Below are positions 6,969 to 31,143 of a DNA stretch of 64,000 nucleotides, piece by piece. This DNA comes from an uncultured Nitrososphaerota archaeon (lineage in GTDB: Archaea > Thermoproteota > Nitrososphaeria > Conexivisphaerales > DTJL01). Numbering within the stretch: position 1 is the first letter of the stretch; each line of letters begins with the position of its first letter. The notes beneath the pieces were generated by a model. The model saw only the letters and a list, made by a program, of their open reading frames with translations, was not told the origin of the DNA and did no database searches. The position numbers were made by a program, and so were the translations under genes. Where the stretch lies: positions 448,001 to 512,000 of the forward strand of contig CAWJIE010000005.1 of assembly GCA_963842885.1 (NCBI GenBank). Reading direction: 5' to 3'.

Positions 6969-7836
6969 GATACTCGCAAATAGGGGTCAGCTCCCCACGG
7001 AGCCTCGGCCAAGCGCTCGAGCTCCTTGCCTAGACGTGGCGAAGAATTGCGGGTCATATCGGGGGGCACGGACGTCACCGTCTACCTGAAGGATGGCATC
7101 CTCAAGGAATCTTGCCTTCTGAATTTGAGCAGGCTGAAGGAGTTGGATTACATTCGCGACGAGGGCGGATTCTGTCGCGATAGGCGCGCGTGTCACGTTC
7201 TCCGGGTTGGTGCGGAGCCGAATCGTCCGGCGCTGGGCGCCTCTTCTGTCAGAGGCCGCCGTCGAAGTGGGCTCCCTCCAGATACGAAACCTCGCGACGC
7301 TGGCGGGGAATATTTGCAACGCCTCTCCTGCGGCGGATTCTCTGCCGCCTCTGTACGTCCAAGGCGCGACCGTCGTCCTGACTAGCGCCGAAGGGAAGCG
7401 GGAGCTAACGATGGAGGAGTTCGTGTTGGGTCCCAGGAGGACGGCGCGGAGGCCTGGGGAGCTACTTACAGAGGTCAGGGTCCCCAAGATGGCGTCTGAC
7501 TCTCGCTACTTCTTCAAGAAGCTGGGATTGAGGAGTTCTCAGGCTATTTCGGTGGTTAGCGTTGCGGCCTCTTGGAAAAGGAGGAATGCGAAGATTGCGC
7601 TCGGTGCTGTCGCTCCAACTGTCGTGCGTGCGAGGCAAGCTGAAGCGTTTGTATCTAGATATGGTTTGAGTTTGAAGAGCATTGACGAAGTGTGCTTCCT
7701 AGTGTCGAAGGCCGCCTCCCCCATAGACGACCTCAGAGGGTCAAAGGGTTACAGGCTGGAGGCAATCAGGGCGCTTTCGTTTGAGGGCTTCTATGAACAG
7801 CTCGCAGGAGCGGGGATTGATGCGTGTAAAGCTTGA
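6965..7836 (+). CDS. Xanthine dehydrogenase family FAD-binding subunit, two frameshifts (about 7031 and 7178)
   Basis: Pieces P-x-SL-x2-ALELL / ISGGTD / QIRNLATLAGNICNASPAAD / PIDDLRGS lie in three frames. Confidence 0.88.
7692..7703 (+). repeat. GTGCTTCCTAGT polar motif, copy 1 (inside CDS)
   Basis: Exact 12-mer. 7690-7707 is identical over 18 bp to the reverse complement of 31128-31145. Confidence 0.9.
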
Positions 7837-8044
7837 ACTGGGGGGTCCCCTCCGCGAGGAGAAGGGCCAGTGGCATTCGCTCAGGCTGTCAGTCGGTTCG
7901 ACTGTCAGCGATGCCCTTCGCAAGGTCGGAGTGACCGAGGAGCTCTACATCGTCGTGATGAGGAACGCGAAGAGGGTGGAGCTTTCCGAAGTCCTCGCCG
8001 AGGGGGACGTCTTAGTGGCTTTTCCACCGGTCGGAGGGGGTTGA
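7820..8044 (+). CDS. MoaD/ThiS-family ubiquitin-like sulfur carrier
   Basis: 74 aa beta-grasp pattern ending EGDVLVAFPPVGGG. Confidence 0.88.
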   Translation: MRVKLELGGPLREEKGQWHSLRLSVGSTVSDALRKVGVTEELYIVVMRNAKRVELSEVLAEGDVLVAFPPVGGG

Positions 8045-10335
8045 GTCTGAAGACGGACAAGAAGTGGATATCACGTTCCCTTCCCCGCATAGACGGCGAG
8101 GGGAAGGTGGACGGGTCCGTCAATTTCTTCTCGGATCTCTATCCGCCCGGTTGCCTTTACGCCAAGACCGTGCGTTCTCCTTTGGCCAGGGCAAGATTGA
8201 CCGGTATCGACACCTCCAAGGCCGAGGCATCGCCGGGAGTGCGTTGCGTTGTGACGCATAGAGACATCCAGGGACTGAACGGCTACGGCGTCTTCTTTAC
8301 TGACGCGCCGGTCCTCTGCTTTTCCGGCGTCAACTACGTGGGAGATCCCGTAGCGCTCGTCGCGGCAGACTCCGAAGATGCGGCGGCCAGAGCCGCGGAG
8401 CTGGTCGAAGTGGGCTACGAGGAGCTCCCAGCAGTCCGTAGTATAGAAGAGGCCTTAGAGCCGGGGGCCCCGGCCTTGCATCCAGAAGGCAACGTCGCAC
8501 GTAGCAACGTAATCAGGAGGGGGAGGTTCGAAAAGGCCGTCAAGGAGGCTCGCCATGTGCTGCGGGGCTTTTATGAGACGCAGAAGCAGAAGCATATGTT
8601 CATAGAGCCTGAGGCGGGGCTCGGCTACGTGGACGGCGGTGGAGTCGTGAACCTCTTCGTCGGGGGCCAGAGCCCGTTCAGGGACGTTCTCCAGGTGGCG
8701 AGGAGCTTGGGGTTACCGAAGGAGAAGGTGAGGGTGGTGAGTTTTCCCATCGGAGGCGCTTTCGGTGGCAAGGACGAGGTCACGGTGCAGATACACCTCG
8801 CTCTCCTCGCCCTGAAGTCTCGGAGACCTGTGAAGCTCATGTGGAGCAGGGAGGAGTCGGGAGCAGCAGGCTTCATGCGGCATGCCTTCAAGCTGGAAAT
8901 GGAGACGGGCTTTGACAGGGATGGCAAGATAGTCGCGAACCGTGCGAAGATTCTTGCGGACACCGGACCCTACCGTTCCTTCGGGCCGGCCGTCCTCGAC
9001 GTGGCCATGGAGACCGTCAACGGACCCTATTTGGTGCCCAACTTCATCATCGATGCGAAGCTGGTCAGGACCAACAACGGCCTCTCAGGGGCTTTCAGGG
9101 GTTTCGGCGCCCCCCAGTCGAACTTCGCCATCGAAGGGCAGATGAGCGCGGCTGCCGAACAGTTCGGTTTCGACAAGGCCGAAGTGAGGAAGAGGAACCT
9201 GTGGAAGGAAGGAAAGGAGGGCAACTTCGGGAAAAAGCTCGTGGACTGCGACGGTCTCGCGGAGTGTCTGAGGCGTGCATCCTCTTCTCAGTTGTGGAAG
9301 TCCAGGGGGAGCCTGAGGTCTAGTAGGCCATGGCTCAAGAGAGGTGTAGGTCTATCCCTAGCCGTGAAGGGTATGGGGTTCGGAACCCTTCCAGACTACC
9401 CGTCAGCGGCCGTCGAAGTCGACCCCCGGGGTCAGGTCACAGTTGGGTTCTCCAACCCAGACTATGGGCAGGGGCTGGTGACGACGAACATGCAGATAGT
9501 TGCGGAAAGGTTGGCTGTCCCTTTGACCTCGGTGCACGTCATCGACGCCGACTCTGGGATGGTGCCCGATACCGGGAGCAGCAGCGCTTCACGAAGCACC
9601 TACACTTCGGGAAACGCCCTTCTGAAGGCCTGCGAGGTGGCCATCTCCGTGCTGAGGGTTGAGGCGGCATCAGAGCTCGGGCTCGGCGTGGATGAGCTTA
9701 CTTATAGCAACGGAAAGTTCATGGGCAAGGGCAGGGAGAAAGACATCTTCAGGCTCGCCAAGTCGATGAGGTTAAGAGGTCTCTCCACCAGATTCGTTGG
9801 GACCTTCGAAGTTCCGCGCCACATGTCCACAGTGAAAGGATCTTTGGAGATACCACACTTGATCTACAACTTCGCGGCACTCGTGGGCGAAGTTGAGGTA
9901 AACACTCTCACTGGCAAGGTGGCGGCTAAGAGATTCATGTTCTTCCCTGACATAGGGAGGGTCCTCAATCCCGTCCTGGCTTCCGCTCAGTGCGACGGAG
10001 GCATTACGCAGGGGCTAGGCTATGCATTAACCGAAGAGCATGTCTACGTCGAAGGAGTCCCAAAGACGACGAACTTCACCACCTACCTCGTGCCCTGTTC
10101 TACGGATTCCCCCGAAGAGATATACACCGAATTCATTACGTCCTGCCTGGACTCGGGTCCGTTCGGAGCCAAGGGCGTGGGTGAGATACCTATCATCCCT
10201 GTGGCGAGCTGCGTGGCTGATGCCGTTTCAGATGCTACCGGGACAAGAATATCTTCCATACCGCTCAAACCCGAAAAAGTCTTGGCCGCGCTGTCCAGGC
10301 AAGCCTCTGAACGCAAGTCGGAACGATGGCCTTGA
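8041..10335 (+). CDS. Xanthine dehydrogenase family molybdopterin-binding subunit
   Basis: IGGAFGGK, AFRGFGAPQ, YGQG, SSASRS and GAKGVGE (catalytic Glu). TTG start overlaps the upstream stop. Confidence 0.93.
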   Translation: MSLKTDKKWISRSLPRIDGEGKVDGSVNFFSDLYPPGCLYAKTVRSPLARARLTGIDTSKAEASPGVRCVVTHRDIQGLNGYGVFFTDAPVLCFSGVNYVGDPVALVAADSEDAAARAAELVEVGYEELPAVRSIEEALEPGAPALHPEGNVARSNVIRRGRFEKAVKEARHVLRGFYETQKQKHMFIEPEAGLGYVDGGGVVNLFVGGQSPFRDVLQVARSLGLPKEKVRVVSFPIGGAFGGKDEVTVQIHLALLALKSRRPVKLMWSREESGAAGFMRHAFKLEMETGFDRDGKIVANRAKILADTGPYRSFGPAVLDVAMETVNGPYLVPNFIIDAKLVRTNNGLSGAFRGFGAPQSNFAIEGQMSAAAEQFGFDKAEVRKRNLWKEGKEGNFGKKLVDCDGLAECLRRASSSQLWKSRGSLRSSRPWLKRGVGLSLAVKGMGFGTLPDYPSAAVEVDPRGQVTVGFSNPDYGQGLVTTNMQIVAERLAVPLTSVHVIDADSGMVPDTGSSSASRSTYTSGNALLKACEVAISVLRVEAASELGLGVDELTYSNGKFMGKGREKDIFRLAKSMRLRGLSTRFVGTFEVPRHMSTVKGSLEIPHLIYNFAALVGEVEVNTLTGKVAAKRFMFFPDIGRVLNPVLASAQCDGGITQGLGYALTEEHVYVEGVPKTTNFTTYLVPCSTDSPEEIYTEFITSCLDSGPFGAKGVGEIPIIPVASCVADAVSDATGTRISSIPLKPEKVLAALSRQASERKSERWP

Positions 10336-10453
10336 CGGGTCTTGCATGCCAAGCGTGGGTTCGAATAGCGTAGCGATTTTGGTCGACTTGAGCCCGTCAG
10401 AGCAGTTCTAGGTCCGAAACCGTTGCTCGGTCTTCTACGGGCGACGGCCCCGT

Positions 10454-11068
10454 CTATTTGTAATCTTTTTCGAGTTCGAGTTCTTTGGCGGCTCTTGCGA
10501 AGTCTTCTTGATAGTCTATGTCCAAGAGCGCTCGCTGCGAGGCCGTCTCGACGTAGGTCGTGGTCTCCCTGTATTTCTGGACGACCTCTTTCATCCCGCG
10601 CCTCTCTTCGGATATCTCCATCAGATCGTCAAAGGTAGAGTCGTTGAAGAGGATGGGGTGGCCGCTCCTCCCCTTATATGCAGCCACTACGATATCATTT
10701 TTTGATCTCGCGAACTCGGCTAGGACGATGTCATAGAGACGCGGCTCAGTGAAAGCCATGTCACCGGGGGAGATCACGATCGCCCTCGCCCTGTCCTTCA
10801 GGTATCCCACTCCCGCGCGAATAGATGTGCTCATCCCCTGGAAGTACTCAAGATTGTGCACTTCTTCGAATCGCAAAGCGGAAAGCGCTTCAAGGACTCT
10901 CTCTCTTTCGTGGCCCGTCACGACGACGGTGTACTTGAGGCCCGCTTTCTGCCCGGCGAGGACAACGCGTGCGACGATTGGCACTCCGTCGATTAGTTCG
11001 ATGAGCTTGTTGCGCCCGAAACGGGTGCTAAGACCAGCCGCGAGGACCATCAAATAGATGGGCTTCAA
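10454..11068 (-). CDS. Molybdenum cofactor cytidylyltransferase (MocA-like nucleotidyltransferase)
   Basis: LAAGLSTRFGRNKL, GMSTSI, GDM, GHPILF, DID; adjacent to an XDH operon. Confidence 0.88.
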   Translation of the reverse strand: MKPIYLMVLAAGLSTRFGRNKLIELIDGVPIVARVVLAGQKAGLKYTVVVTGHERERVLEALSALRFEEVHNLEYFQGMSTSIRAGVGYLKDRARAIVISPGDMAFTEPRLYDIVLAEFARSKNDIVVAAYKGRSGHPILFNDSTFDDLMEISEERRGMKEVVQKYRETTTYVETASQRALLDIDYQEDFARAAKELELEKDYK

Positions 11069-11103
11069 GCGTAGCCTCTGTTCAAGACTAGACGTATATT
11101 AAT

Positions 11104-12417: not shown

Positions 12418-12515
12418 AATATGTCAAAGGTGGCTCCACCCTCCAGCCGAGATAAGGGTTTCTTAACGCGGTACAATAGACAAGGTTAATTTGGCTATGC
12501 CGCTATTAGGATAAC

Positions 12516-13269: not shown

Positions 13270-13308
13270 CGCGGGCGATTTCTCACCGGACGATGCCTTA
13301 AGTCTTTC

Positions 13309-14286
13309 TCACATACGCCTTGAAATAGTGCGGCGGAAGCTCTCGAGATCCTCGCGCTTGACAATCCTCGCATACGGGTCAAGACCGGCCCCTGAAATGC
13401 CAATCGCTATCGCTTCAGTGTTAGTGAAGACCCCCGGGGTGCCATTCCTATCGATCACTATAATACCCCCAGTGTTGTCCCCGAAGAGCCTCCCCATCTC
13501 CTGTACGGCCTTCTTTGCGGCCAAAGGCGCCGGGTTCTTCGACGCAATTAAGCCAACGGCCCTAAGACAGAGGCCACACTTAATGATCATTTCTCCGACG
13601 CCCGTGGCCGACGCCGCACCAACATTCCCCATGGCATAGTAACCCGCCCCGGCGATTGGAGAATCGCCCATCCGGCCCGGCAGCTTGAATTGCATACCGC
13701 CGGTGCTTGTGGCGGCAGCTAGGCCCCCGTCCTGGTCCAAGGCGACGGCTCCCACGGTGTCGGATGGTGCGGCGGCCCTCAGGTAGTTGCGATCCAGTCT
13801 CCCAATCCACCCCTGCTGCGACGAAGAGAGGTAGGACCTCCAACCCTGTTGGAAGGCCTCCGCCTTCTCTTTGGTGGGTAAGAACTTCTCCCTCAGGCCA
13901 TAGGCTTCGGCTAGCTTCTCGGCACCAGTAGAGACCAAGATGACGTGAGCGGTCTTCTCCATTACTATCCTAGCTAGTTCGACGGGGTGGGGGACGTCTC
14001 GGACGCACCCGACTCCGCCAGCGAGCAGCCTCTCACCGTCCATGATCCCCGCATCTAGCTCGATGTAACCTTCATAGTTAAGCGCGGCTCCCCTTCCAGC
14101 GTTAAGGACGCCCGAATCCTCCATCACCCTGACGGCGGCGACGACAGCATCGACAGCACTGCCCTTCCTGAGGGTCGAAGCCCCGGTCTCCGCCGCGTCT
14201 TCAAGAACCTTCCTGGCTTCTAGTGCAGCTCCTTCGTTCAAAGTCCAACGGCCGGCACCCCCTTGAACCACCATTTTGCCGTTCAA
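13309..14286 (-). CDS. Isoaspartyl peptidase/L-asparaginase (Ntn hydrolase)
   Basis: NAGRGA, ELDAGIMDG, DTVGAVA (Thr nucleophile), TSTGG, GRMGDSP. Confidence 0.93.
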   Translation of the reverse strand: MNGKMVVQGGAGRWTLNEGAALEARKVLEDAAETGASTLRKGSAVDAVVAAVRVMEDSGVLNAGRGAALNYEGYIELDAGIMDGERLLAGGVGCVRDVPHPVELARIVMEKTAHVILVSTGAEKLAEAYGLREKFLPTKEKAEAFQQGWRSYLSSSQQGWIGRLDRNYLRAAAPSDTVGAVALDQDGGLAAATSTGGMQFKLPGRMGDSPIAGAGYYAMGNVGAASATGVGEMIIKCGLCLRAVGLIASKNPAPLAAKKAVQEMGRLFGDNTGGIIVIDRNGTPGVFTNTEAIAIGISGAGLDPYARIVKREDLESFRRTISRRM

Positions 14287-14368: not shown

Positions 14369-14536
14369 CTACTTCCGCCTGAGTCCCTGCCGGATGATCT
14401 CCTCGATAAGTCGGCTTCTGTTAGCGGTGACCAGCTGGCCAGCCCTGACCTGGTCCGCCTGATGGCGACGAACGAGCTTGTCAAGATCCTGCAGAAGGTC
14501 TTCAGACAGGGTGATAGTCACCTTGGATTTCTTCAT
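14369..14536 (-). CDS. Ribbon-helix-helix (CopG-like) DNA-binding protein
   Basis: MKKSKVTITLSEDLLQDLDKLV...NRSRLIEEIIRQGL, 55 aa. Confidence 0.8.
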   Translation of the reverse strand: MKKSKVTITLSEDLLQDLDKLVRRHQADQVRAGQLVTANRSRLIEEIIRQGLRRK

Positions 14537-14741
14537 AACATAAGATGGTATGATAGTATGATATAGCCTTTGTGCAAATAGACCATGATGTCCCGATACA
14601 ACAAGATGACGGTCATGGCCGCTCAGGCAGGCCGTCGTCGGCGAGTTGCCTAGCATGTCGATTGGGTCCGAGTTGCACGTCCAAGCTAATGCGCTGCAGA
14701 TATCGAACAAGATATCGTGTAAGATAGAGCCTAGGACCAAG

Positions 14742-15029
14742 CTATGCGTTTTCCTGTTCGATGCCGGCCGAGTCGCCATAGCCGCATCCGCAGGCCATCG
14801 TGTTCGTGAGCACGAAGTGCTTGTCTTCGCCCTCTATAACAAGGTCGATCTCCGCTTGTTCAAGGACCTCCGCGGTCCGCTTGTCTGTCGGGACAAAGAC
14901 ATCTCTTCCGTTGAAGATCAAGTCACCTCCGGGGACTTTGTCGACTAGGAACATGCAAAGTGCTAGGTTTACTTGGTCCGCCTGTTGCATGGAGAAACAG
15001 ATTGCCTCGTACTTGCTTTCAGATAGCAT
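14742..15029 (-). CDS. Hypothetical acidic protein
   Basis: 95 aa ORF with ATG just downstream of a TTTAA box; no recognised family. Confidence 0.55.
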   Translation of the reverse strand: MLSESKYEAICFSMQQADQVNLALCMFLVDKVPGGDLIFNGRDVFVPTDKRTAEVLEQAEIDLVIEGEDKHFVLTNTMACGCGYGDSAGIEQENA

Positions 15030-15145
15030 TCCCTTAAATTTGTCTGTTTTTGCTTTATTAAGTGTAATAAGTGTAATACTTACGAAGTTTGAGTTCGATT
15101 TGGTTTGATGTTAACTTTGTTTATTTTTTTGTTCTGTGATATTGT

Positions 15146-15157
15146 GTGCTTCCTAGT
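15146..15157 (+). repeat. GTGCTTCCTAGT polar motif, copy 2
   Basis: Exact 12-mer preceded by a T/G-rich tract of about 110 bp. Confidence 0.9.
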
Positions 15158-15214
15158 GCCCGAACCGAACGTCTCAAATAGCGCCAAAGCTCGCAATTCA
15201 CCGGCCGAGATGGC

Positions 15215-16045
15215 TTGAGGAGGAAAATCCGCGACTACGAAAGAGACCTTTGGGCACTGTTCTGGAGTTATTCCAATAGCGGCGAATTCAGCGAGATCCG
15301 GACTTACCTCCTCCAGCGCAGTGGACTCCCCGGGCCCAGGGGAAACCTCGAGCTAGCAACTGCCTTCGGGAACGTCATTCAAAGAGGTGTCGTCTCTGGT
15401 GCCCTCGATTCCAAGGAACTCCTCTCGCTCTGTCAGAGCCTGTGCCAGATACCTCCCGCACTGGCACCCACAAACGATCCCAAGGAGTTCTTGGTGCTCT
15501 GCGGAACATGCGGGCTGGGAGCCCTCGGGACCGTGGCAGCAGATTTCCAAGCCGTCGCTTCCAGTCTGAGCTCCTTAGCCGGCGACCTAAGATGGAGAAC
15601 TAGGGAGGGGGTTGCCATGGCCCTTCAGCGGATGATCGACGCAAAGCCAAAACAGACCCTAATGCTACTCGCCCAGTGGGTTGAAGTAAATGACCCCCTT
15701 CTCCTTCGAGCCGTCGTCGCGGGGGTGGCGGAGCCGAGGCTCCTCCGCAACGACGATGTAGCCCGGTCCGCCCTCGGGCTTCACCGGAGGATTTTCGAGA
15801 GGCTTTCGGAACTTGACCGCGAAGGCGACGACTTCAAGGCTCTAAGGAAGAGCCTCGGCTACTCTCTGAGCGTAGTCGTGGCTTCTTCGCCTAGGGAGGG
15901 CTTTGCTTTGATGAATGAGTTGGCTAGGAATGAGGATCATGATGTTATCTGGATAGTGAGAGAGAATTTGACGAAAAAGAGACTGGCGAAGTGCTTGGAT
16001 AATTTGGATACTGTGAAGAAGATACTTTCAAGTAAGCAGGTTTAG
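15215..16045 (+). CDS. HEAT/ARM-repeat-like protein
   Basis: SGLPGPRGNLELA and D-x-RWR-x-REGVAMALQ motifs; all-alpha repeat pattern. Confidence 0.75.
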   Translation: MRRKIRDYERDLWALFWSYSNSGEFSEIRTYLLQRSGLPGPRGNLELATAFGNVIQRGVVSGALDSKELLSLCQSLCQIPPALAPTNDPKEFLVLCGTCGLGALGTVAADFQAVASSLSSLAGDLRWRTREGVAMALQRMIDAKPKQTLMLLAQWVEVNDPLLLRAVVAGVAEPRLLRNDDVARSALGLHRRIFERLSELDREGDDFKALRKSLGYSLSVVVASSPREGFALMNELARNEDHDVIWIVRENLTKKRLAKCLDNLDTVKKILSSKQV

Positions 16046-16151
16046 CCGTTGCATTGTGAAGTGTCTTCTACGTGTCTGGTCTCTTGTATATTGATTCTTT
16101 TGTGTTAATTTATTGAATTGGGTTTTGTTTATAGAGAAGGGTTGGTTGTGT

Positions 16152-16163
16152 GTGCTTCCTAGT
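16152..16163 (+). repeat. GTGCTTCCTAGT polar motif, copy 3
   Basis: Exact 12-mer preceded by a C-poor tract that reaches back into the upstream CDS. Confidence 0.9.
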
Positions 16164-16356
16164 AGGAGGCTGGGCAGGGTGGCTCTGAGCTGCCTTGGTG
16201 TTGTCCATTAGAAGCGTTCTCGACCCAGCAGTCTGGGCAATCAAGCTCGGGTATTTGTCAAGCATGCAATGGGGATGCTTTAGGTGTTGAGCGCGATTTA
16301 GCCTGTCATCAGGGGGACCCGGTAATCGGCGGCGTGCCTACGGGTCATCAGTCGGC

Positions 16357-16587
16357 GTGGACAACTTTATGTATCCAAGAAACGTGGTGTTGTCCGTGCC
16401 GCGACAGAATCTGATCAGGTGCCCTAAGTGCGATAGGCTGGCTTGGAACCCTGATATCGCTATCAGGACCGGTAAGAACCCCGAGAAGAAGTACAGCTAC
16501 TACAGATACAGGCACCCTCTCGACAGGCGGACCGGCCGCAACAAAACGTGCTACGTCCCGGTCGTCAAGCCCGACCCCAACCACTAG
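16357..16587 (+). CDS. Small zinc-finger protein, paralog of 1603..1854
   Basis: CPKCDR-x-W-x-P, RTGKNPE, YRYRH-x2-D-x-RTGRNKTCY. Its TAG stop lies within motif copy 4. Confidence 0.75.
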   Translation: MDNFMYPRNVVLSVPRQNLIRCPKCDRLAWNPDIAIRTGKNPEKKYSYYRYRHPLDRRTGRNKTCYVPVVKPDPNH

Positions 16588-16594
16588 GAAGCAC
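16583..16594 (-). repeat. GTGCTTCCTAGT polar motif, copy 4
   Basis: ACTAGGAAGCAC on the + strand followed by a G-poor, C/A-rich tract. Confidence 0.9.
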
Positions 16595-16681
16595 CCCATC
16601 AAACCAACAACTGCTCTCAACACTCTTAACAATAAGAATTCGAATTTACATAAAAAGATTCTCCCTTATCAATATAACGTA

Positions 16682-17098
16682 TCATTTCCCTCGAAACGCA
16701 TCAGCCTTACGCAACAAAATCTTTATGTTTTCATAAATAGTTGCTCTCATAGCCTCTTCCAAGGTCATCCAAACGAAATCCCGGTGTTCATTCGAAATCT
16801 TCACGTTGACGCTGTCAGTATAACCCAGGTAATATCGTACAGATTTATGAACCTTAGCTCCCCCTGGCCGCAAGTAGAAGTAAGTAATTTTCTCCGCGAA
16901 CCCGTCGACGAGCTTTATGTCAGGGAGGCCCGTTTCCTCCCTTGCTTCTCGGACCGCCGCGTTCAGCTCCGACTCACCAATTTCGATGTTGCCCTTGGGA
17001 AAGTCATACTTCGACTTGTCGTTTCTCAGCAATAGGTACTTGGTGACTCCATCCTGGGTATGGAAGACTACTACCCCAGCCGAACGCTCTTCGAGCAA
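16682..17098 (-). CDS. NUDIX hydrolase (Ap4A hydrolase-like)
   Basis: Nudix box FPKGNIEIGESELNAAVREAREETG; SNEH. Confidence 0.92.
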   Translation of the reverse strand: MLEERSAGVVVFHTQDGVTKYLLLRNDKSKYDFPKGNIEIGESELNAAVREAREETGLPDIKLVDGFAEKITYFYLRPGGAKVHKSVRYYLGYTDSVNVKISNEHRDFVWMTLEEAMRATIYENIKILLRKADAFRGK

Positions 17099-20410: not shown

Positions 20411-21487
20411 TTGTGGGATTCACAGGGTTTTTCTAGGGCGCTGGTTCCCGGACAGGGCAGGAGCGGTGAGGCGAAGCTGAAGGTCGTTCGTCTTTGGTCG
20501 AGCCCCGAGCCCGAAAGGCTCATCGGACTGGCCATGCGTAGATGCTATACGACGAAGGTCTGGGAGGAGCTGCTGCAGGATGTCCAGACCGCCGGCTATC
20601 CAGAGTACCTCACCGAAAGTGCATTCAGACGGCTTGAGTTCGACGTATACGAGCATGTGAGAATGCTGTTCACCGTCCTCGCTGTCCCATCCGAGATGCT
20701 CTCCCTGCTCCAGACGCACCCTCAAGTCGTCTCCAGCAAGCTCTCCGAAGGTAGCTTCCTCGTCAGCATGAACCTCCGGACTCTTACCGAGATGAGCCGA
20801 AAGCTGAACTGCGTCGGTTGGGAGTGTGGGGAATTCTCGCGGCTCCTCGCCGAAGTCTCCCCCACGGTTTCCGCCTGCTTGAAGTTCGACGGTAAGGAGA
20901 GGCGATCCGAAGGCGAGAAGCCAGGCAGCACTGGCACTTCAGAGGCGGACTTCAGGGTAATCCTTGTTCAGCAGCTGACCCAGGCAGATGTGGGGGAGCT
21001 TGCAAGAGCGGACTTGCCACCCAAGGAGCTGGTCAAACACGCCTTTGCCACGGTCGAGGTGGAAGGGATCTCCAGGGCATGCTCCCATCAGCTGGTTCGC
21101 CACAGGCTCTTCAGCTACTCCCAGGAAAGCCAGCGCTTCTCCGACGCCGTGAACGAGACAGGGGTCCTCCCTCCCAGCCTTTCGGCAGACGACCGGGCTT
21201 TGGCCATCTTCAGCCAGCACATGGAGGCCAGTCGCAGGGCTTACTCAAAGTTGAGAGAACTGGGGATAAAGAAGGAGGACGCCAGGTTCGTCCTTCCGAC
21301 CGCGCTCAAGACGAAGATATTGATGACGGCCTCCCTTTACGAGATACTCCACGCGTCCTTCTACCGCAGCAGCTTCAGCGAGGTAGGTAACAAGGCCCAG
21401 TGGGAGATCAACCGGCTATTTACGAGCCTCTACGCCGAGCTGAGGAGACGGGACCCGGGGCTCCCTGAAAGGATTTCTGAGACGTAA
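20411..21487 (+). CDS. thyX: FAD-dependent thymidylate synthase ThyX (duplicated-domain form)
   Basis: ISRACSHQLVRHR-x2-SYSQESQR, EDARFVLP, KAQWEI; degenerate ThyX-like N-terminal half (YEH, MNLRT). Confidence 0.88.
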   Translation: MWDSQGFSRALVPGQGRSGEAKLKVVRLWSSPEPERLIGLAMRRCYTTKVWEELLQDVQTAGYPEYLTESAFRRLEFDVYEHVRMLFTVLAVPSEMLSLLQTHPQVVSSKLSEGSFLVSMNLRTLTEMSRKLNCVGWECGEFSRLLAEVSPTVSACLKFDGKERRSEGEKPGSTGTSEADFRVILVQQLTQADVGELARADLPPKELVKHAFATVEVEGISRACSHQLVRHRLFSYSQESQRFSDAVNETGVLPPSLSADDRALAIFSQHMEASRRAYSKLRELGIKKEDARFVLPTALKTKILMTASLYEILHASFYRSSFSEVGNKAQWEINRLFTSLYAELRRRDPGLPERISET

Positions 21488-24966: not shown

Positions 24967-27843
24967 TTGAGCACTAAGCGCGGCGTCGAAGGGGTATTCA
25001 GGAGCTTCACTCCGGCGATAGTGGAGCTGCTCATAGAGGGGAACATCCTGAAGCCCACGCCGCCTCAGGTGGAGGCCATCCCCCTGATCTCCTCTGGCAG
25101 GAACACTTTGGTCGTCTCCCCAACGGGATCCGGCAAGACGGAGGCCGCCATCCTCCCCATCCTGGATATAATGGTGAGGGGCTCGGTGCAGTCGAAACGG
25201 GGGGTCCTCCTCCTCTTCATCACCCCGCTGAGGGCTCTCAACCGTGACCTCCTCGACAGGATGACGCGCTGGTGCAAGACCCTCGACATTCGGCTGGCCG
25301 TAAGGCACGGAGACACGGAAACCGCGGAAAGGAGGACGCAGACCATGGCGCCCCCGCACGTCCTCATCACCACGCCGGAGACCCTGGAGGTCCTCCTCGT
25401 CGCTAAGGTATTCAGGGAGCACCTTAGGAGCCTGCGTTGGGTCGTGGTGGACGAAATACACGAGCTCGCCACCGACAAGCGGGGCACGCAGCTGGCCGTC
25501 GCCCTGGAGCGCCTAAGAAGGCTCACGGATGCGGACTTCCAGCGCATCGGATTGTCCGCCACCGTCGGCGATCCCGAGAAGGTCGCCAACTTCCTTGTGG
25601 GCCCAGGTAGGGAATGCTCCGTCGTCAAGACGCCGGTGGCCAAGCTTTTCAAGTTCGAGGTCCTCTACCCGGAGGCGAGCAAACAGGACTCGGCCATGGC
25701 TGACAAGATGATGAGCCACCCGGACGTGACCGCCAGGCTGAGGACCATGCTGCGCCTCATCGAAGAAGGGCCCCTCCTCATCTTCACCAACACCAGGACC
25801 GAAGCTGAAATCCTGACAAGCCGGCTCAGGCAGTGGAGTCCCCGCATAGCGATAGCCGTCCACCACGGGAGCCTCTCTCGGGCCTCCAGGTCAAAGGCTG
25901 AAGAGGACCTGAAGTCGGGCCGATTAAAGGCCGTTGTATGCACCAGCAGCCTCGAGCTGGGCATTGACGTGGGCCTGTTGAACCTCGTCATCCAATATAA
26001 CTCTCCGAGACAGGTCGTTCGGCTCATACAGCGTGCTGGGCGGAGCGGCCACACTCTGGAGAGGACCAGCAGGTGCGTAGTCATCTGCCAGGACGCCGAC
26101 GACGCCCTAGAGGCTGCGGTGGTAGGGAGGAGGGCGAAGGAGGAGCTTCTCGAAGAACCCGTCATCCCCATGCTGTGCAGCGACGTGCTGGTGCAGCAGC
26201 TCTCTGGCCTGCTCATCGAATCCGGCAGGCTGGAGACGAGCGATGCACTTTCCCTATTCAGGAGGAGCTTTCCATTCACCCAGCTGAACGAGCGCGACAT
26301 CAGGGAGGCCGTCGACTACATGGCGATGCTCAAGCCTCGTCTGGCAAGGGCTGCGGGGGATGACATCGCCCGACCTTCGGACAACCGCGGCCTTTTCACG
26401 TATTATTTCGACAACCTCACCATGATCCCTGAGCACCGGCAGTACCCCGTCATCACCGAAAAGAAGGAGGCGGTGGGGCTCCTCGACGAGGAGTTCGTGT
26501 CGGAGCACGGCGAGATAGGGAAGAAGTTCATCCTCAGGGGGAGCGTCTGGAGGATAAACCAGGTTTACAACTCCAAGGTCTTTGTCGAGGAAGACGACGA
26601 CCCGATGGGAGCCATCCCGAGCTGGGTGGGCGAAGAGATACCCGTGCCCACCGAGGTCGCAATGGAGGTCGGGAGCCTCAGGGGCCTGGCCCCGAGAGCC
26701 GAGTCGGAGGGGAAGCACCTCTCTGCGCTCTGCGAGGAGCTGGCCGCCCGGTACCCCATGAGGGAGGAGGGGTTCAAGAGATCCCTCTCCTCCGCCGTCC
26801 AGCAGCTGAAGATGGGTCTGGCTCTTCCGTCAGACTTCACGATCACGGTCGAACAGTGGAAGGAGCTCGTCATCATAGTGACCCACAGGGGGCTCAAGGC
26901 GAACAGGACGCTGGGTCGACTGCTTTCATACAGATGCTCTTCGGTCCTGGGGAAGCCCGTCAGCGTCAACCAGGACGCATACAGGATATTCCTGGAGGGC
27001 AAGACGCTCACCTGCGAATCCGTCAAGGACGCCCTCGGCTATCTGGCAGAGAGCGACCTCGTGTCCTATGTGACCGCCGCCTGCGAAGACACGGGCCTCT
27101 TCCGGAGGAGGTTTGTCCACGTCGCTCGTAAGATGGGCGTCCTCTCGAGAGACGCAGAGCTAACGAGCTCCCTGGTCAAGCAGCTCGTCGAGACCTACAA
27201 GGGCTCCCTCCCGTACAGAGAGGCCTGGAGGACCTTCCTCCAAGAGGACTTGGATTCGAGAGAGACCAGCGCCCTCCTCGCAGGGCTCGCCTCAGGCAGG
27301 ATCGCCGTCGAGCTGCTGGGCCGGCTGGCTGAGCCCAGCCCCATCGCCATGATAGGGCTCGAAGAGATGTCCCGCAAGGGCGAGGTGATGGATCCGGCAA
27401 AGATGAAGCGGCTCCTCCTCGAGTCGGCCAGGTCCAGGGTGCTCAACGGAAGGACCATCCTCGTCTGTCCCAACTGTTGGAACTACGTCGAAGAGAAGTA
27501 CGTCGTCGACCTTCCCGAAAGGATCTCCTGCCCCCTGTGCAAATCCGACAGGGTGGCATCGTCCTACCGCGAACTTGAAGAGATGCAGGACCTGGCCAGA
27601 AAGGTGCGGAGCCGCACGAGCCTCTCCAGAGGGACGCTGAGACACAAGAAGGAACTGGAGGGAAGCTCGCGCCTAAATTCGACCTTCGGATCCATGGGAG
27701 TAAAGGCCCAGGTCTTCAACGTCGCCCTCGCACGGCTGGCCGAGATGCTCGCCAGGGCCCCAGGGAACGAAGACGACCTCCTCCTCGCTCTGATGGAGGA
27801 GGAGAGGAAGACGTACTTGAAGCGCTTCGTGGGCTCTAGGTAG
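24967..27843 (+). CDS. lhr: Lhr-family SF2 helicase with C-terminal zinc finger
   Basis: PTGSGKTEAA, TTPETL, DEIHEL, HHGSLS, SSLELGIDVG, QRAGRSGH, IPSW-x-GE; CPNC...CPLC. Confidence 0.93.
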   Translation: MSTKRGVEGVFRSFTPAIVELLIEGNILKPTPPQVEAIPLISSGRNTLVVSPTGSGKTEAAILPILDIMVRGSVQSKRGVLLLFITPLRALNRDLLDRMTRWCKTLDIRLAVRHGDTETAERRTQTMAPPHVLITTPETLEVLLVAKVFREHLRSLRWVVVDEIHELATDKRGTQLAVALERLRRLTDADFQRIGLSATVGDPEKVANFLVGPGRECSVVKTPVAKLFKFEVLYPEASKQDSAMADKMMSHPDVTARLRTMLRLIEEGPLLIFTNTRTEAEILTSRLRQWSPRIAIAVHHGSLSRASRSKAEEDLKSGRLKAVVCTSSLELGIDVGLLNLVIQYNSPRQVVRLIQRAGRSGHTLERTSRCVVICQDADDALEAAVVGRRAKEELLEEPVIPMLCSDVLVQQLSGLLIESGRLETSDALSLFRRSFPFTQLNERDIREAVDYMAMLKPRLARAAGDDIARPSDNRGLFTYYFDNLTMIPEHRQYPVITEKKEAVGLLDEEFVSEHGEIGKKFILRGSVWRINQVYNSKVFVEEDDDPMGAIPSWVGEEIPVPTEVAMEVGSLRGLAPRAESEGKHLSALCEELAARYPMREEGFKRSLSSAVQQLKMGLALPSDFTITVEQWKELVIIVTHRGLKANRTLGRLLSYRCSSVLGKPVSVNQDAYRIFLEGKTLTCESVKDALGYLAESDLVSYVTAACEDTGLFRRRFVHVARKMGVLSRDAELTSSLVKQLVETYKGSLPYREAWRTFLQEDLDSRETSALLAGLASGRIAVELLGRLAEPSPIAMIGLEEMSRKGEVMDPAKMKRLLLESARSRVLNGRTILVCPNCWNYVEEKYVVDLPERISCPLCKSDRVASSYRELEEMQDLARKVRSRTSLSRGTLRHKKELEGSSRLNSTFGSMGVKAQVFNVALARLAEMLARAPGNEDDLLLALMEEERKTYLKRFVGSR

Positions 27844-28405
27844 AAGGTTGTGAGGCGTCTATGCGCTTCGAAAGTATGGAGGTGAGGAGCTCGTCCCTGT
27901 CTATCTCCACGCGGCTCCTCCACCCGACCCGGATGAAGTCGCCATCTTCCTCCAGGTAGCCCAGGCGCACGAGCTTGTTCATGATCTGCTGAACGCGCCA
28001 CGCTGGAAGCTTCTCCTTGATGGTGTCCTCAAGGAGGCGCTTGGGGGCCGAGCCCGCACGCACGAAGAGCTGGCTCAAGAGGATGGCCAGGCTCGCCGCC
28101 TCCTCCATCCTGAGCCATCCGCCAAGCTCCCTGTCCTTCAGGGGCGCCTTGGTCACCAGCACGTAGCGGGCCTTGTCCGGATCCTTCTCGTCTTCCTCGT
28201 CGGGCACCGCGACGAGCTTCAGGCCGAATTCCGAGGCCAAAGAGTCCGTCAGCTTGAGGACGTCAAGGTAGCTCCTCCCGAGGAGGCGCTTGAGCTCCCA
28301 ACCTTTGAGACCAGGCTGGAAGTGGCGCTGGTAGAGCAGTGTCGTAAGGCCCTTCAGGGCCTTCTCTTTGAGCTCTTGCGTGTCCTTGTTCTGTTCTTGT
28401 GTCAC
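27836..28405 (-). CDS. Tandem winged-helix kite subunit (ScpB/Nse1/Nse3-MAGE-like)
   Basis: GTG start after a GGGGTGA RBS; C-terminal LAILLSQLF...KLVRLGYLE...GWRSRVEI resembles the MAGE/Nse WH-B domain; third gene of the SMC operon. Confidence 0.7.
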   Translation of the reverse strand: MTQEQNKDTQELKEKALKGLTTLLYQRHFQPGLKGWELKRLLGRSYLDVLKLTDSLASEFGLKLVAVPDEEDEKDPDKARYVLVTKAPLKDRELGGWLRMEEAASLAILLSQLFVRAGSAPKRLLEDTIKEKLPAWRVQQIMNKLVRLGYLEEDGDFIRVGWRSRVEIDRDELLTSILSKRIDASQPST

Positions 28406-28410
28406 CCATC

Positions 28411-29139
28411 TCACCCCAATGAAATCGCAACGGACCTGTCTACTTTGCCCTCCGCAGGCGTTATGAGATAGTCCGAAGTGGACGGGTCGTAGCGGAGGGC
28501 GAACGCTCCCCTCATGCACAGGTGGGCAAGAGAGTAGGTCTCCTTGAGCTTCTCCGCCCCCTGGAAGCCGCCCGCGAACTCCTTGAAGAGAAGAGGACCT
28601 TCGGCAAGCCTCCGGCTGACCCTGAGGAATGTGGACCGGAGGCACTTTTCAAGCTCCTCGGGGTCCATCCTTATGGATTCATAGGCGGTCCCTTCGTCCG
28701 CTGGTCCCAGCGGCCCCAGCCGGCCTAAAGAACCCCACCCGTAGAGCTGCACCCAGTAATCGGCGGCCTCGAGCAGCCTCGAGGTGGGCATCAGCTTCGC
28801 AGCGGCCGGGGGATGGTGCGCCTCCCCCAATGCCCCCGCTATGTCCGAGACGCTGAGAGACATCAGCTTGGAGATGAGAAGGCCCGGGTCCACCTGGAAG
28901 GTCGTCAATTGGAAGGTGAGCCATTCGTCCTGCAGGCCGACGACCTTGCTGACCGCGTTGATGGCCTGGGCGTCGGCGAGGAGGTCTTGCCTCTCCAGCT
29001 CCTTGAGGCCCTTCTTTAGCCTCCTCAGTATGGGCTTGACCTCCACCATGAAGGGATCTCCTCCCTGGTCCTTGAGGTCCTCAGGGAGCGAAGCCACCCT
29101 GAGCCTGTACTCCTTCGCGTCACTCGACTTTGCTGACAC
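28411..29139 (-). CDS. Kleisin (ScpA/Nse4-like)
   Basis: N-terminal DPF-x-V...DL-x3-AQAI-x2-VS helices and C-terminal WH (LLFKEF...YSLAHL-x3-G). Overlaps the SMC gene. Confidence 0.7.
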   Translation of the reverse strand: MSAKSSDAKEYRLRVASLPEDLKDQGGDPFMVEVKPILRRLKKGLKELERQDLLADAQAINAVSKVVGLQDEWLTFQLTTFQVDPGLLISKLMSLSVSDIAGALGEAHHPPAAAKLMPTSRLLEAADYWVQLYGWGSLGRLGPLGPADEGTAYESIRMDPEELEKCLRSTFLRVSRRLAEGPLLFKEFAGGFQGAEKLKETYSLAHLCMRGAFALRYDPSTSDYLITPAEGKVDRSVAISLG

Positions 29140-31048
29140 CCTTGGCCACCTTGATCTGCGAAGCCGTAGCCACCTTCTGGACCATTATGTAGTGAGCAGA
29201 CTCGTCATAGAAAGCCGGCGAGCCGGGCGTTATGACCAGATACTGCACCGACCTGTCCGCCTTGAAATAGTCGTGGATGGCCCTGATGAAAGTCTCGCGG
29301 CTGGACGGGTCCATGTGGACGTCGAACTCGTCCACGGCCCTGAACGGCGAGATGATGTGCTCTTGGAGGGCGAACAGGAAAGCGGTAACGGCCGAGCTCC
29401 GCTCGCCTCCGCTCTGTGTGTACGCGTCCAGCGGGACCAAGTCCTGTCCCCTGAAGGCCACTTGGAGCTCGAGGCCCGCCCTGAGGGGGTCATCCTCCCC
29501 AACTACCCTCACCCTTCCGCTACCGCCGATCAGGGACAGCATCTTGCCGTAGCTTTCGTTGACCCCGGAGATGAGTTCGTCCAGCTGCTTGCGCCAGACC
29601 TTGAACCTCTCGTTGACCTCCTCCAGGGTGGCCTCCTTGTTCTCCTTCAACTCGTCCAGCTTCCCGGAGAGATCCTGTATCCTGATCTGGAAATCGCGAT
29701 AAATCTGCTCGGCCTCCTGGGGGATGTCGCCCAGCTGGACTAGCTGCGCTTCGTCCACCTTGATGGCAAGCTGGATGTCGCCCAGGCTCCTCGTAGAGGT
29801 CACTCTGAGGCCAAGGGCTTCCGCGGCCGACTTCGCCGCCACCAGCTCTTCTTGCGACGAAACCTGCAAACCTTCAAGGGTCTTCAGCTCCCTCTTCTTC
29901 TCCTTGAGGCGATAGTCCAAGACAGCGACCTTCTCTCTTGACACGGCGTATGCCTCTACCTTGGCGGGGAATCCCGAGCTCTCCGCACCCAGCCCTCTTT
30001 CGACGGAGGAGATCTCGTCCTCCAGCGTCTTGACTCTTCCCTGTCCAGAGCTCAACACCTTCTCTACCTCTTCGGCAAGGTCCTTCGAAGCGTCCTGCAG
30101 CGCTGCCTTCAAAGAGCCGTAGGACGAAGAATCATGCTGAATCGTTAGCAGGTCACCTCGCAGCCTGGACAGGCTCCTCTCTCCCTTGAGCAGCGATTCT
30201 AGGGCTTCGGTGATGGCCTTGGCTCGTTCCTGAACGTCTCCCTGCCCTTCCCCCAGCTTCGTCGTCATCTCAGCGATCGTCGATTCGGCCTCCCTGATGC
30301 GCTGGGCGATGGAGGTAAGCTTCTCCTCCTCTCTAGAGACCCTGCACCACACCTCTTCAAGCCTGAACCTGGTGAGCTCTTCGCGTAGACCCTGGATTTT
30401 CACACTCTTTTCATAGTTCTCCTGCCAGCGAGCCAACGTGGTCTTCGCAGTCTCCAGCTCCTTCTTCTTCTCCTCTTCCTCGGTCAGAATGGAATCGAGC
30501 CTGCCTTTGGCCTCCAGCAGGCTCGCCCTGTACGAGGCCAATCCGGCGGCATCCTCGACAAGGGCCAGCTTCTCTTCAGGCCTGACGACACTGAATGTGT
30601 CTCCAAGGCCTTGATGCATCATTATGAGCATGTTGTCCGGGTTGAGGCCGAGCTTGCCCAGCGTTTCGACGACCGCCTGCTTGTCAGCCTCCTTGAAATC
30701 GATCTCGAACCAGTATGTGCCATCCTTCCGGATGTACCTCGAGAGGTGAATCGTGTCGGCCCTGTAAGGGAGGGGCCTTTTGCCATTGACGGGAGAGTTA
30801 TCAAGGAGAAGCGTAACCCTGGAAATGTCCCTGCCTCTCTTGACCAGGTCGCTGAGCTTCCTCGACCTCTCGGTCGAGGCTTGGCCCAAAGCGACAGATA
30901 TGCCAATCAGAATGCTTGACTTCCCCGCGCCATTTGGGCCCATGACTACGTTGAGGCCAGGCTTGAGCATGACTCGGCCATAGTCGTAGCTAAGGAAGTT
31001 CTCGAGGATGACCTCCTTGATGAATGCCCGGCCCTCCCCTTTCTCCAA
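29120..31048 (-). CDS. Short SMC-family ATPase, SMC5/6-like
   Basis: Walker A GPNGAGKSS, Q-loop MHQG, coiled coil, signature QSGGERS and Walker B/D-loop SPFRAVDEFDVHMDP. Confidence 0.9.
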   Translation of the reverse strand: MEKGEGRAFIKEVILENFLSYDYGRVMLKPGLNVVMGPNGAGKSSILIGISVALGQASTERSRKLSDLVKRGRDISRVTLLLDNSPVNGKRPLPYRADTIHLSRYIRKDGTYWFEIDFKEADKQAVVETLGKLGLNPDNMLIMMHQGLGDTFSVVRPEEKLALVEDAAGLASYRASLLEAKGRLDSILTEEEEKKKELETAKTTLARWQENYEKSVKIQGLREELTRFRLEEVWCRVSREEEKLTSIAQRIREAESTIAEMTTKLGEGQGDVQERAKAITEALESLLKGERSLSRLRGDLLTIQHDSSSYGSLKAALQDASKDLAEEVEKVLSSGQGRVKTLEDEISSVERGLGAESSGFPAKVEAYAVSREKVAVLDYRLKEKKRELKTLEGLQVSSQEELVAAKSAAEALGLRVTSTRSLGDIQLAIKVDEAQLVQLGDIPQEAEQIYRDFQIRIQDLSGKLDELKENKEATLEEVNERFKVWRKQLDELISGVNESYGKMLSLIGGSGRVRVVGEDDPLRAGLELQVAFRGQDLVPLDAYTQSGGERSSAVTAFLFALQEHIISPFRAVDEFDVHMDPSSRETFIRAIHDYFKADRSVQYLVITPGSPAFYDESAHYIMVQKVATASQIKVAKGVSKVE

Positions 31049-31131
31049 CGCCGCCTATCCGCTAAGAAGACAGGTAATAAACCGTTTGCCATCCTACTTA
31101 GTTGACAACCGCCTAGATGTGGCTGACCGAC

Positions 31132-31143
31132 ACTAGGAAGCAC
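31132..31143 (-). repeat. GTGCTTCCTAGT polar motif, copy 5
   Basis: ACTAGGAAGCAC on the + strand followed by a C/A-rich tract; about 85 bp upstream of the SMC start. Confidence 0.9.

Follow-up and report, generated by a model that had tools for sequence, protein, structure and literature searches.

The window analysed here is a 64,000-nucleotide stretch of contig CAWJIE010000005.1 (C5:448001-512000) from the genome assembly of an uncultured Nitrososphaerota archaeon (GCA_963842885.1, hereafter G000), and it carries five exact copies of a 12-nucleotide motif, GTGCTTCCTAGT, each bordered on one side by a tract that is strongly depleted in cytosine. The assembly is 87% complete and is distributed over 11 contigs, and its genes were called by a simple longest open reading frame (ORF) rule. 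The leftmost copy (7692-7703, + strand) resides within coxM, where it is read in frame as the codons E-V-C-F-L-V, and this coxM site is exact in G000 only. Copy a (15146-15157, + strand) occupies the divergent spacer between an IscA-like gene on the minus strand and a HEAT-repeat gene on the plus strand, here termed gene X, and is located 57 nt upstream of the first start codon in the ORF of the latter. Copies b (16152-16163, + strand) and c (16583-16594, - strand) form the left and right arms of a central inverted pair with 419 nt between its arms, and they are found 106 nt past the stop of gene X and 87 nt past the stop of a NUDIX gene, respectively. The last copy, e (31132-31143, - strand), is in the spacer between the 3' end of a PfkB gene and an SMC-like gene, 83 nt ahead of the start codon of the latter. 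Along the window the orientations follow the order + + + - -, and both groups converge on a centre of ~420 bp at C5:~464 kb. This central segment (16164-16582) is of normal composition and holds a zinc-ribbon ORF of 76 amino acids (16357-16587, + strand), whose TAG stop is inside copy c and whose product is 68-76% identical in two related species (G002 and G003). The genes flanking the centre are convergent, with gene X and the zinc-ribbon ORF on the plus strand and the NUDIX, PINA, PIN and UbiA genes on the minus strand.

A pattern search reproduces the coordinates and strands of all five copies as listed in an initial annotation of the window, and no other exact copy exists in the 2,034,618 bases of the assembly; all five fall within 23.5 kb. 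When up to one mismatch is allowed, the window still yields five matches, compared with 0.17 expected, and none of 100 shuffled sequences reached this number. Six sites with one mismatch are present elsewhere in G000, and their upstream 60 nt contain 14-20 C, which is ordinary. The count of only five copies in the genome does not support the Chi- or KOPS-like (FtsK-orienting polar sequence) genome-wide polar motif that the initial annotation had entertained. The consensus given there, '(T)GTGTGC...', also proves to be loose, given that the base preceding the 12-mer is either G or T in 16 of the 17 copies found in four genomes.

On the strand that carries the motif, the pooled fraction C/(C+T) declines in successive 50-nt bins toward the motif from 0.53 through 0.47, 0.41, 0.35 and 0.29 to 0.11, and then recovers immediately to 0.58 in the first bin on the 3' side, in agreement with the earlier description of normal composition directly past the motif. 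From -800 to -300 the fraction is 0.53-0.63, and the depletion spans the ~300 nt leading up to the motif. Across the genome the fraction averages 0.584 (SD 0.104), with a 0.1% quantile of 0.217, and the nearest 50 nt on the 5' side of each of the five copies fall below this quantile (0.19, 0.09, 0.00, 0.125 and 0.17). The fraction G/(G+A) is flat at 0.51-0.64 throughout the tract. Because C/(C+T) drops while G/(G+A) is unchanged, the composition of the tracts is that of DNA in which most C has turned into T on one strand only. The hand counts in the initial annotation are exact (4 C in 50 nt, 3 C in 55, 1 C in 61, 5 G in 86 and 1 G in 37), and its background of ~30% C matches the window fractions of 0.293 for C and 0.291 for G; the A>G half of the mutational signature it proposed is not seen, since G/(G+A) does not move.

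The individual tracts extend over coding and non-coding DNA alike. That of the coxM copy (7400-7691, + strand) is entirely within coding sequence and is strongest at 7641-7691, with 4 C and 17 T in the last 50 nt. The tract of copy a (14850-15145, + strand) covers a 116-nt spacer (A24 C10 G21 T61) and the 5' part of the antisense IscA-like gene, and it is among the strongest, with 3 C and 30 T in G000 and 3 C and 23 T in G002. The tract of copy b (15900-16151, + strand) comprises the last ~145 nt of the gene X coding region and a 106-nt spacer (A17 C10 G28 T51), and that of copy c (16595-16890, - strand), which appears as G depletion when read on the plus strand, comprises an 87-nt spacer (A23 C5 G23 T36 on the motif strand) and the 3' coding end of the NUDIX gene. 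At copy e the tract (31144-31400, - strand) is strongest in the nearest ~40 nt, and the last 50 nt contain 5 C and 24 T; read on the plus strand, 31144-31180 has a single G.

Such tracts are rare in this genome. Stretches with no more than three C or G per 60 nt number 39 genome-wide; three of them abut the copies at 15146, 16152 and 16583, and a fourth is in the gene just upstream of the copy at 16152. Averaged 3' and 5' gene flanks in G000 have baseline composition and are generally neither T-rich nor C-poor, and only one of 1036 gene 3' flanks has six or fewer C in 80 nt, namely the flank at the copy at 16583. The spacers abutting three of the boxes are 64-73% A+T in a genome of 58% G+C, where gene flanks elsewhere show no AT enrichment. 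Other extreme tracts in G000 are AT-rich or purine-rich and do not have the T-rich, normal-G make-up described here, with an exception near the end of contig C3. There, at C3:575,429-575,515, a T-rich and C-poor tract of 87 nt resembles the motif tracts, and no common word was seen alongside it. Five very AT-rich tracts are also clustered near a contig end at C2:4,500-12,000, likewise with no common word seen alongside.

The initial annotation noted that mutually homologous flanks would point to a common inserted element. None of the ten flank pairs scored above the best of 200 shuffles; the summed flank score was 195, compared with 168 (SD 8.3) for shuffles, a difference that we attribute to common short G/T words. 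Because the flank pairs are not homologous, the explanation by a common inserted element fails. The end of a mobile element, an att site and a miniature inverted-repeat transposable element were rejected for the same lack of homology and because the flanks are in part the coding sequences of unrelated genes. A diversity-generating retroelement was set aside because the flanks are not pairs of template and variable repeats, reverse transcriptase genes having not been searched for. Att sites derived from tRNA genes were likewise rejected, given that the sole ARAGORN call in the window (13688-13790) is within an asparaginase gene and away from all copies. This 103-nt tRNA-Gly(CCC) is probably a false call, since it is inside a gene (13309-14286) whose Pfam match has E=1.4e-76. 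Finally, 3' ends of spliceosomal introns were rejected in a densely coding prokaryotic genome of 2 Mb in which the coxM copy is in frame and aligned through the site.

Third codon positions allow the compositional shift to be followed at synonymous sites. When motif-strand counts from coxM, gene X, the NUDIX gene, the PfkB gene and the IscA-like gene are pooled, third positions within 300 nt upstream of the motif comprise 67 C and 92 T (0.42, versus a genome value of 0.737; p=5e-17), and the corresponding ratio of 132 G to 49 A (0.73) is unchanged. The shift is graded, with 11 C to 36 T at 0-150 nt, 56 C to 56 T at 150-300 nt, and 132 C to 47 T at 300-600 nt, the last of which (0.74) is back at the genome value. 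In gene X alone, third positions within 300 nt of copy b comprise 9 C and 21 T. The IscA-like gene is antisense to copy a, and its motif-strand third positions are also shifted (15 C to 16 T, versus 0.725 expected; p=0.004). Because this opposite-strand gene shifts on the motif strand, the loss of C tracks the motif strand rather than the direction of transcription.

The coxM copy permits a comparison with orthologs that do not have the exact motif. The orthologous sites in G002, G003 and G004 read TTGCTTCCTAGT, GTGCCTCCTAGT and GTGCCTTCTAGT, which are 1, 1 and 2 bases off, respectively, and the site lies in conserved codons, E-V-C-F/L-L-V, that align with the orthologs across the site. In the 132 nt upstream (7560-7691), third positions in the genome with the exact 12-mer comprise 7 C and 16 T, versus 10 and 5, 15 and 6, and 13 and 10 at the same aligned positions in the orthologs (pooled 38 to 21; Fisher p=0.007). 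The coxM shift appears only in the genome that carries the exact 12-mer. We note as a separate matter that coxM (6987-7836) is represented in G000 by two overlapping frames (6987-7385 and 7207-7836), and that contigs from other strains are without one base at 7029 and at 7170; the gene in G000 is therefore either frameshifted or bears assembly indels.

A scan of the genome and its relatives, as the initial annotation had suggested, recovered the exact 12-mer in four of 41 related genomes, namely G000 and three of its four congeners (G002, G003 and G004). It was absent from all 36 genomes searched in other genera and from G001, the fifth genome of the genus, which is 59% complete. A reversed control word gave three scattered matches in the same search. 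Related genomes are not independent samples. Each of the three other species has 3-5 exact copies that are syntenic and in the same converging orientation, and 17 of 17 copies are exact across the four species of the genus. The order + + + - - is present in both G000 and G003 and is comparable in G002 and G004, and it points at the small zinc-ribbon gene. Site a, upstream of gene X, has syntenic exact copies in G002 and G003; site b, past the gene X stop, has syntenic copies in G003 and G004 located 0-5 nt beyond the stop codon; sites c and e, past the NUDIX stop and in the PfkB/SMC-like spacer, have syntenic copies in all three species; and a further site, d, in the PINA/NUDIX spacer, has a copy in G003. 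Among the orthologs of copy e, the distance to the downstream start codon ranges from 83 to ~640 nt, and a conserved GTTGTCAAC-like palindrome is found between copy e and the start of the SMC-like gene.

The motif copies turn over among species. G002 has two copies 159 nt apart past the NUDIX gene together with a one-mismatch copy past gene X, and G003 and G004 carry one-mismatch copies alongside exact ones. A decayed older copy, GTGTCTTCTACG (16061-16072, + strand), is present in G000 16 nt past the gene X stop, where it aligns with GTGCTTCCCAGT of G002, which sits just past the gene X stop codon in that genome. Several of the differences between the two, as read from the alignment, are C in G002 and T in G000. 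The decayed copy is at the same position as copy b of the relatives and is inside the scar of the present copy b of G000. The gradient itself is also found outside G000. In G002 it resembles that of G000, with C/(C+T) of 0.20, 0.35, 0.44, 0.46 and 0.50 in bins outward from the motif, and in G003 and G004 depletion is confined to the nearest 50 nt (0.39 and 0.35). A difference in uracil-DNA glycosylase was rejected as the cause of these weaker scars, given that all four genomes have two matches to this enzyme.

Metagenomic loci extend this comparison. Among 80 loci kept as relatives of gene X, the motif is present only in four with at least 64% identity; one of these (L013) matches the flanks of G003, two (L014 and L015) match the flanks of G002, and one (L019) is 98% identical to G000 in gene X. 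Syntenic loci in two other genera (G005 and G006) have an arcadin gene, a zinc-ribbon gene and an asparaginase gene, with no comparable boxes or C-free, T-rich tracts. Contigs nearly identical to the window were found in sequencing runs labelled as peat and freshwater metagenomes, and for this reason an argument for deamination at high temperature was left unused. Among the differences listed for the strain contigs, none is inside the 12-mer of the coxM copy. At position 16078/16079, three other strains have an additional 31-32 nt that are C-poor and flanked by a short GTCT repeat, and these strains differ inside this segment at A/G and C/T positions. Polarising substitutions by parsimony among the four species, another suggestion of the initial annotation, gave a weak excess of C>T (26, versus 14 G>A, in 14750-15250), which we do not use as evidence because the sequences are too diverged.

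The genome also contains a canonical replication origin to which the cluster can be compared. This origin (C4:345,860-346,230; locus L011:2860-3230) combines the start of orc1/cdc6 with four boxes resembling origin recognition boxes (ORBs), at about 345,864-346,230, and an AT-rich stretch. Three of the boxes have an exact TCCACTGG core and one has the variant TCCACTGA. Matches to Cdc6_C in G000 are found only at C4:344.7 kb and C3:234.2 kb. On the plus strand, C/(C+T) is 0.32-0.45 over the 2 kb to the left of this origin, and G/(G+A) is 0.20-0.47 over the 2 kb to its right. This polarity matches that of the motif cluster, where C is scarce on the plus strand to the left and on the minus strand to the right. 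For orc1 the depleted strand serves as the template, and the polarity implies that the leading-strand template is C-poor.

To describe strand bias at a regional scale, we used a per-gene statistic, r, defined as T3/(T3+C3) minus A3/(A3+G3), corrected for the genome coding-strand mean and signed by strand. It is unaffected by reverse-complementing a contig, and it removes the mean coding-strand effect but not expression-linked heterogeneity. The uncorrected mean for the coding strands of G000 is -0.017, which indicates no general excess of T over C. The running sum of r peaks at C4:345,255 and at C5:468,949. Within 60 kb on either side of the C4 origin, r is +0.054 on the left and -0.060 on the right (p=4e-10), and over the same distances from the cluster centre it is +0.038 and -0.023 (p=1.4e-5). 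In a scan of 300 positions, which excluded genes within 600 nt of any motif copy, the top two independent peaks of origin polarity were C4:345,000 (0.103, p=4.5e-9) and C5:470,000 (0.060, p=1e-5), and the third reached 0.038. The motif cluster sits at the second-strongest strand-bias switch of origin polarity in the genome. A preprint (10.1101/2023.11.15.567178) argues that archaeal skews mirror gene orientation rather than mutation.

Among the neighbouring genes, one with a possible role in recognition of the motif encodes a protein resembling the ribbon-helix-helix (RHH) family (14369-14779, - strand), with conserved residues at ~50-136. It is ~370 nt from copy a, and its match to Pfam RHH_1 (E=0.0055) is below the family cut-off. 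Strong orthologs (E<=1e-28) exist only in the motif-bearing genomes G000, G002, G003 and G004, and weak matches (E 1e-6 to 1e-8) were found in four of 37 other genomes. We infer only that this RHH-like protein could be a candidate binding factor. The zinc-ribbon protein has a paralogue in the window (1603-1854) and homologues in two other genera that do not have the motif. Searches with the zinc-ribbon, IscA-like and RHH proteins returned nothing above cut-off in Pfam, NCBIfam, PHROGs, PDB sequences or the ESM Atlas, and Pfam and NCBIfam searches of the ORFs in the cluster region (batches of 10, 10, 10 and 6 proteins) revealed no replication-initiator family. No known RNA family reached its gathering score in the window. 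Several genes in the vicinity are associated with DNA repair, including those for an Lhr helicase, PINA, an SMC/Rad50-like protein and the NUDIX protein.

Some features of these neighbours deserve mention in their own right. The PINA-type Holliday-junction ATPase is split in G000 into a PIN ORF (18336-18845) and an ATPase-KH ORF (17215-18180), and it is a single ORF of 542-543 amino acids in G002, G003 and G004. The region 27836-31048 encodes a short SMC/Rad50-like protein (642 amino acids) followed by two ORFs, one of them weakly similar to MAGE/Nse3, and together these may constitute a small SMC-type complex. Inverted repeats of TGTTGTCC and GGACAAC surround the start of the zinc-ribbon gene (16199-16206, 16359-16365 and 16388-16395), and TGTTGTC is the only 7-mer outside the motif that is present in at least two copies in the cluster region of all four species. 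A ThyX ORF (20411-21487, 358 amino acids) matches the Thy1 domain only at residues 207-349, and it may have either a long N-terminal extension or a miscalled start.

The proposal in the initial annotation of a directional site flanked by a strand that undergoes repeated exposure thus survives in part: the loss of C is graded, one-sided, strand-specific, evident at synonymous positions and dependent on the exact 12-mer, and the A>G component and the Chi/KOPS analogy are the parts that fall away. Two geometries could produce such a pattern. Machinery that starts in the centre or at a box and travels outward would encounter or depart from each box on its 3' side and would expose the motif strand 5' of the box. 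If instead a fork or an RNA polymerase moving inward is stopped at the 5' face of the box, the motif strand would be exposed as the lagging-strand template or as the non-template strand. Because the regional bias at the cluster and that at the bona fide origin of the same genome share a polarity, we favour the outward, replication-linked class. Among the mechanisms listed in the initial annotation, an unwinding site fits best, and a terminus-type fork barrier fits worst because the regional bias of the cluster has origin polarity and not the opposite.

Our preferred proposal, which we hold tentatively and place somewhat short of an even chance, is that the 12-mers serve as polar boxes in a second origin or unwinding zone, distal to orc1, with replication proceeding outward from it. 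The 12-mers, all pointing at the ~420-bp centre, would be recognised by a protein, and the replication machinery would travel away from this zone. The strand running 5' to 3' into each box would then be the leading-strand template of the outward fork and would stay single-stranded for longer over the few hundred bases on the 5' side of the box. Cytosines exposed in this manner may deaminate and become thymines, which could leave a graded scar with a sharp edge at the box. In work on eukaryotes and archaea, MCM tracks 3'-5' on the leading-strand template and synthesis of the leading strand is set up late in the vicinity of start sites, and these two properties might account for exposure of this particular strand. 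Candidate factors would include a second Orc1/Cdc6 paralogue encoded elsewhere or the genus-specific RHH protein beside copy a. A more specific version, in which each 12-mer is a one-way replication start or entry point, with no adjacent Orc1 gene or ORB core and recognised by a factor of a new kind such as the RHH protein, is possible but in our view doubtful.

Various observations weigh against an origin or unwinding zone at this location. There is no orc1/cdc6, MCM or other initiation gene at the locus, the MCM match being on C4, and the boxes and their flanks do not contain the TCCA-N-TGGA core of ORBs. The AT-rich tracts face outward instead of being enclosed by inverted boxes, and two of the copies are 8.5 and 14.5 kb from the centre, one of them inside a gene. 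The convergent genes that flank the centre would be transcribed head-on to outward forks, an arrangement that would suit a terminator or terminus. The polarity also implies that C is lost from the leading-strand template, which is the reverse of the usual bacterial picture. Biased composition is evident at the tracts and a raised mutation rate is not: the tract of copy c differs from strain L019 at 14 sites in 89 nt, and no raised rate is inferred because this divergence is near the local neutral level, for which a rough estimate of ~12% was obtained from third positions of the NUDIX gene against the same strain. Support for the skew from relatives is also limited. One long contig (G003:C17) shifts in the same direction without reaching significance (p=0.13-0.6), and the skew could not be calibrated in G003 because its ORB-type orc1 was not found. 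In G010, a closed genome of the order, the sign at the orc1 origin is again the same, though weakly so (p=0.04-0.1), and the point opposite to it on the circle tends the other way (p=0.22).

Transcription offers a different account, wherein a protein bound to the 12-mer acts as a roadblock terminator or insulator that halts RNA polymerase arriving from the 5' side, the T-rich tract aids release, and the non-template strand, here the motif strand, is left open to deamination in stalled bubbles or R-loops. We consider this unlikely, even though the placement of many copies is what would be expected of it: five of the six site classes are just downstream of a same-strand gene (gene X, NUDIX, PINA in G003, PfkB and coxM), three copies in G003 are 5-9 nt past a stop codon and lead directly into a run of four or more T, convergent genes are kept apart by the central pair, and the T-rich tract is on the side from which polymerase would arrive. 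This placement rule fails for copy a in G000, G002 and G003, since this copy has no same-strand gene for more than 2 kb upstream and yet has one of the strongest scars, which in G000 and G002 enters a gene on the opposite strand. Moreover, the coding strands show no general third-position excess of T over C, gene 3' flanks are generally not T-rich, the depleted strand at the canonical origin is the template of orc1, and the cell would pay a high price for a roadblock within the cox operon. The model would have to treat the skew switch at the cluster as coincidental, and a purely transcriptional cause is disfavoured because it explains neither this switch nor copy a. If the 12-mer were simply the operator of a local transcription factor, for example the RHH protein, the T-rich flank would have been selected and no mutational process need be invoked. 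The RHH-like gene beside copy a does co-occur with the motif, and copies are found 57 nt ahead of gene X and 83 nt ahead of the SMC-like gene. An operator is nonetheless improbable given that in five different genes synonymous codon positions carry the bias as far as 300 nt into the coding sequence, that the strand-specific loss leaves G/(G+A) untouched in a way that selection for AT-richness would not, that the distance to the start codon varies so widely among the orthologous e copies, and that the tract sequences are not conserved even between strains.

Barriers to replication forks could generate the same local pattern if inbound forks pause at the 5' face of each box and the lagging-strand template, here the motif strand, deaminates. 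The sites would resemble Ter sites: they are not palindromes, each genome has only a few of them, and they face each other in two groups across a centre with convergent genes. A sharp edge at the box with a decay over ~100-300 nt would suit a gap comparable in size to an Okazaki fragment. We judge this account quite unlikely, because the regional third-position bias has the same sign as that of the orc1/ORB origin, where a terminus should have the opposite sign. The families of Tus and RTP (PF05472 and PF02334) have no matches in the 87% complete G000, with control genomes matched as expected, and there is no tyrosine recombinase gene nearby, the closest on the contig being at C5:10-12 kb. Furthermore, termination in Sulfolobus is reported as a stochastic collision of forks (PMC3020120). 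A site-specific nick or break followed by one-way resection, or a Chi-like stop, would involve a machine that, starting in the centre or at the box, removes or displaces the complementary strand outward and leaves the motif strand single-stranded and 3'-ended on the 5' side of the box. Its geometry agrees with the observations in strand, side, sharp edge and one-sidedness, and the repair genes in the vicinity (Lhr helicase, PINA, SMC/Rad50-like and NUDIX) could be seen in this light. However, the locus has no associated nuclease, relaxase or recombinase, the strain contigs display neither joints nor accumulated ends (features that assembled contigs would not reveal), five copies are too few for a genome-wide Chi role, and the 60-kb skew switch is left unexplained, such that we give this possibility very little weight.

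Should the more specific version, with each 12-mer as a one-way start or entry point, be correct, sequence by itself would suffice to locate start sites and their polarity in uncultured archaea, by means of a deamination scar at base resolution that records the firing direction. Only about a dozen archaea, each of them in culture, have known sites of replication start and stop (PMC4010727); the lineage described here is represented by metagenome-assembled genomes only. A sharp polar C-to-T gradient would serve as a marker of strand exposure and of the direction of machinery, making origin architecture or fork pausing testable in organisms that have not been cultured. The locus also offers a clean natural case of a DNA site that shapes the mutation spectrum of its neighbours, in which the affected positions in nearby genes are synonymous ones and, in some cases, ones that alter the amino acid, and in which the decay of older copies of the site is part of the effect. 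A new binding factor is likely whichever mechanism applies.

Polar boxes that carry a C-to-T scar on one side only, at ORBs or elsewhere, were not encountered in the literature on origins, strand asymmetry, deamination, fork barriers and Conexivisphaera, which was searched with most subscription journals out of reach. Several known systems share some attributes of the present boxes. Chi and KOPS sites function in an orientation-dependent manner, and Chi also yields single-stranded DNA of the motif strand 5' of the site; both are over-represented and skewed genome-wide, unlike five copies in one 23.5-kb stretch. Reb1 and TTF-I (Sal box) are eukaryotic roadblock terminators of RNA polymerase whose sites are also found in promoters as insulators, and they resemble the present boxes in having a polar site, a T-rich element upstream and a placement just past genes. 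The differences are that the host here is an archaeon, that copy a has no incoming gene, and that there is a 300-nt gradient at synonymous sites instead of a short release element. The Tus-Ter system of Escherichia coli and the RTP-Ter system of Bacillus subtilis likewise rely on polar sites that are not palindromes and have a strictly conserved core; a genome has about ten of them at most, divided between two opposed groups. The present boxes differ from these in their archaeal host, in the lack of a Tus or RTP match in G000 and in the origin polarity of the bias, and their scar is on the outer face, an arrangement that would halt forks short of the centre instead of trapping them within it.

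Archaeal origins provide the remaining comparison. Archaeal ORBs are described in PMC12141716 as binding Orc1 monomers with defined polarity, with inverted ORBs flanking an AT-rich element, and Sulfolobus is said there to use three origins, each dependent on a different initiator. An archaeal chromosome with several origins and a separate initiator for each has precedent (PMC12141716, PMC4010727), and in the only thaumarchaeon studied, one origin was mapped (PMC4010727). The 12-mer departs from an Orc1/Cdc6-ORB origin in that it is without the TCCA-N-TGGA dyad, a core that clusters beside orc1 on C4 instead, and in that no orc1/cdc6 gene adjoins it, its AT tracts are outside the converging boxes, and the outlying copies are at such distances. 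The reverse complement of the box, CACTAGGAAG, is loosely similar to the ORB core of G000, CCACTGGAA, plus one extra base, which we treat as a lead only. What the cluster has in common with ORB and mini-ORB arrays is a handful of short polar boxes in opposed orientations, with AT-rich DNA adjoining them and a switch of strand bias at the same place.

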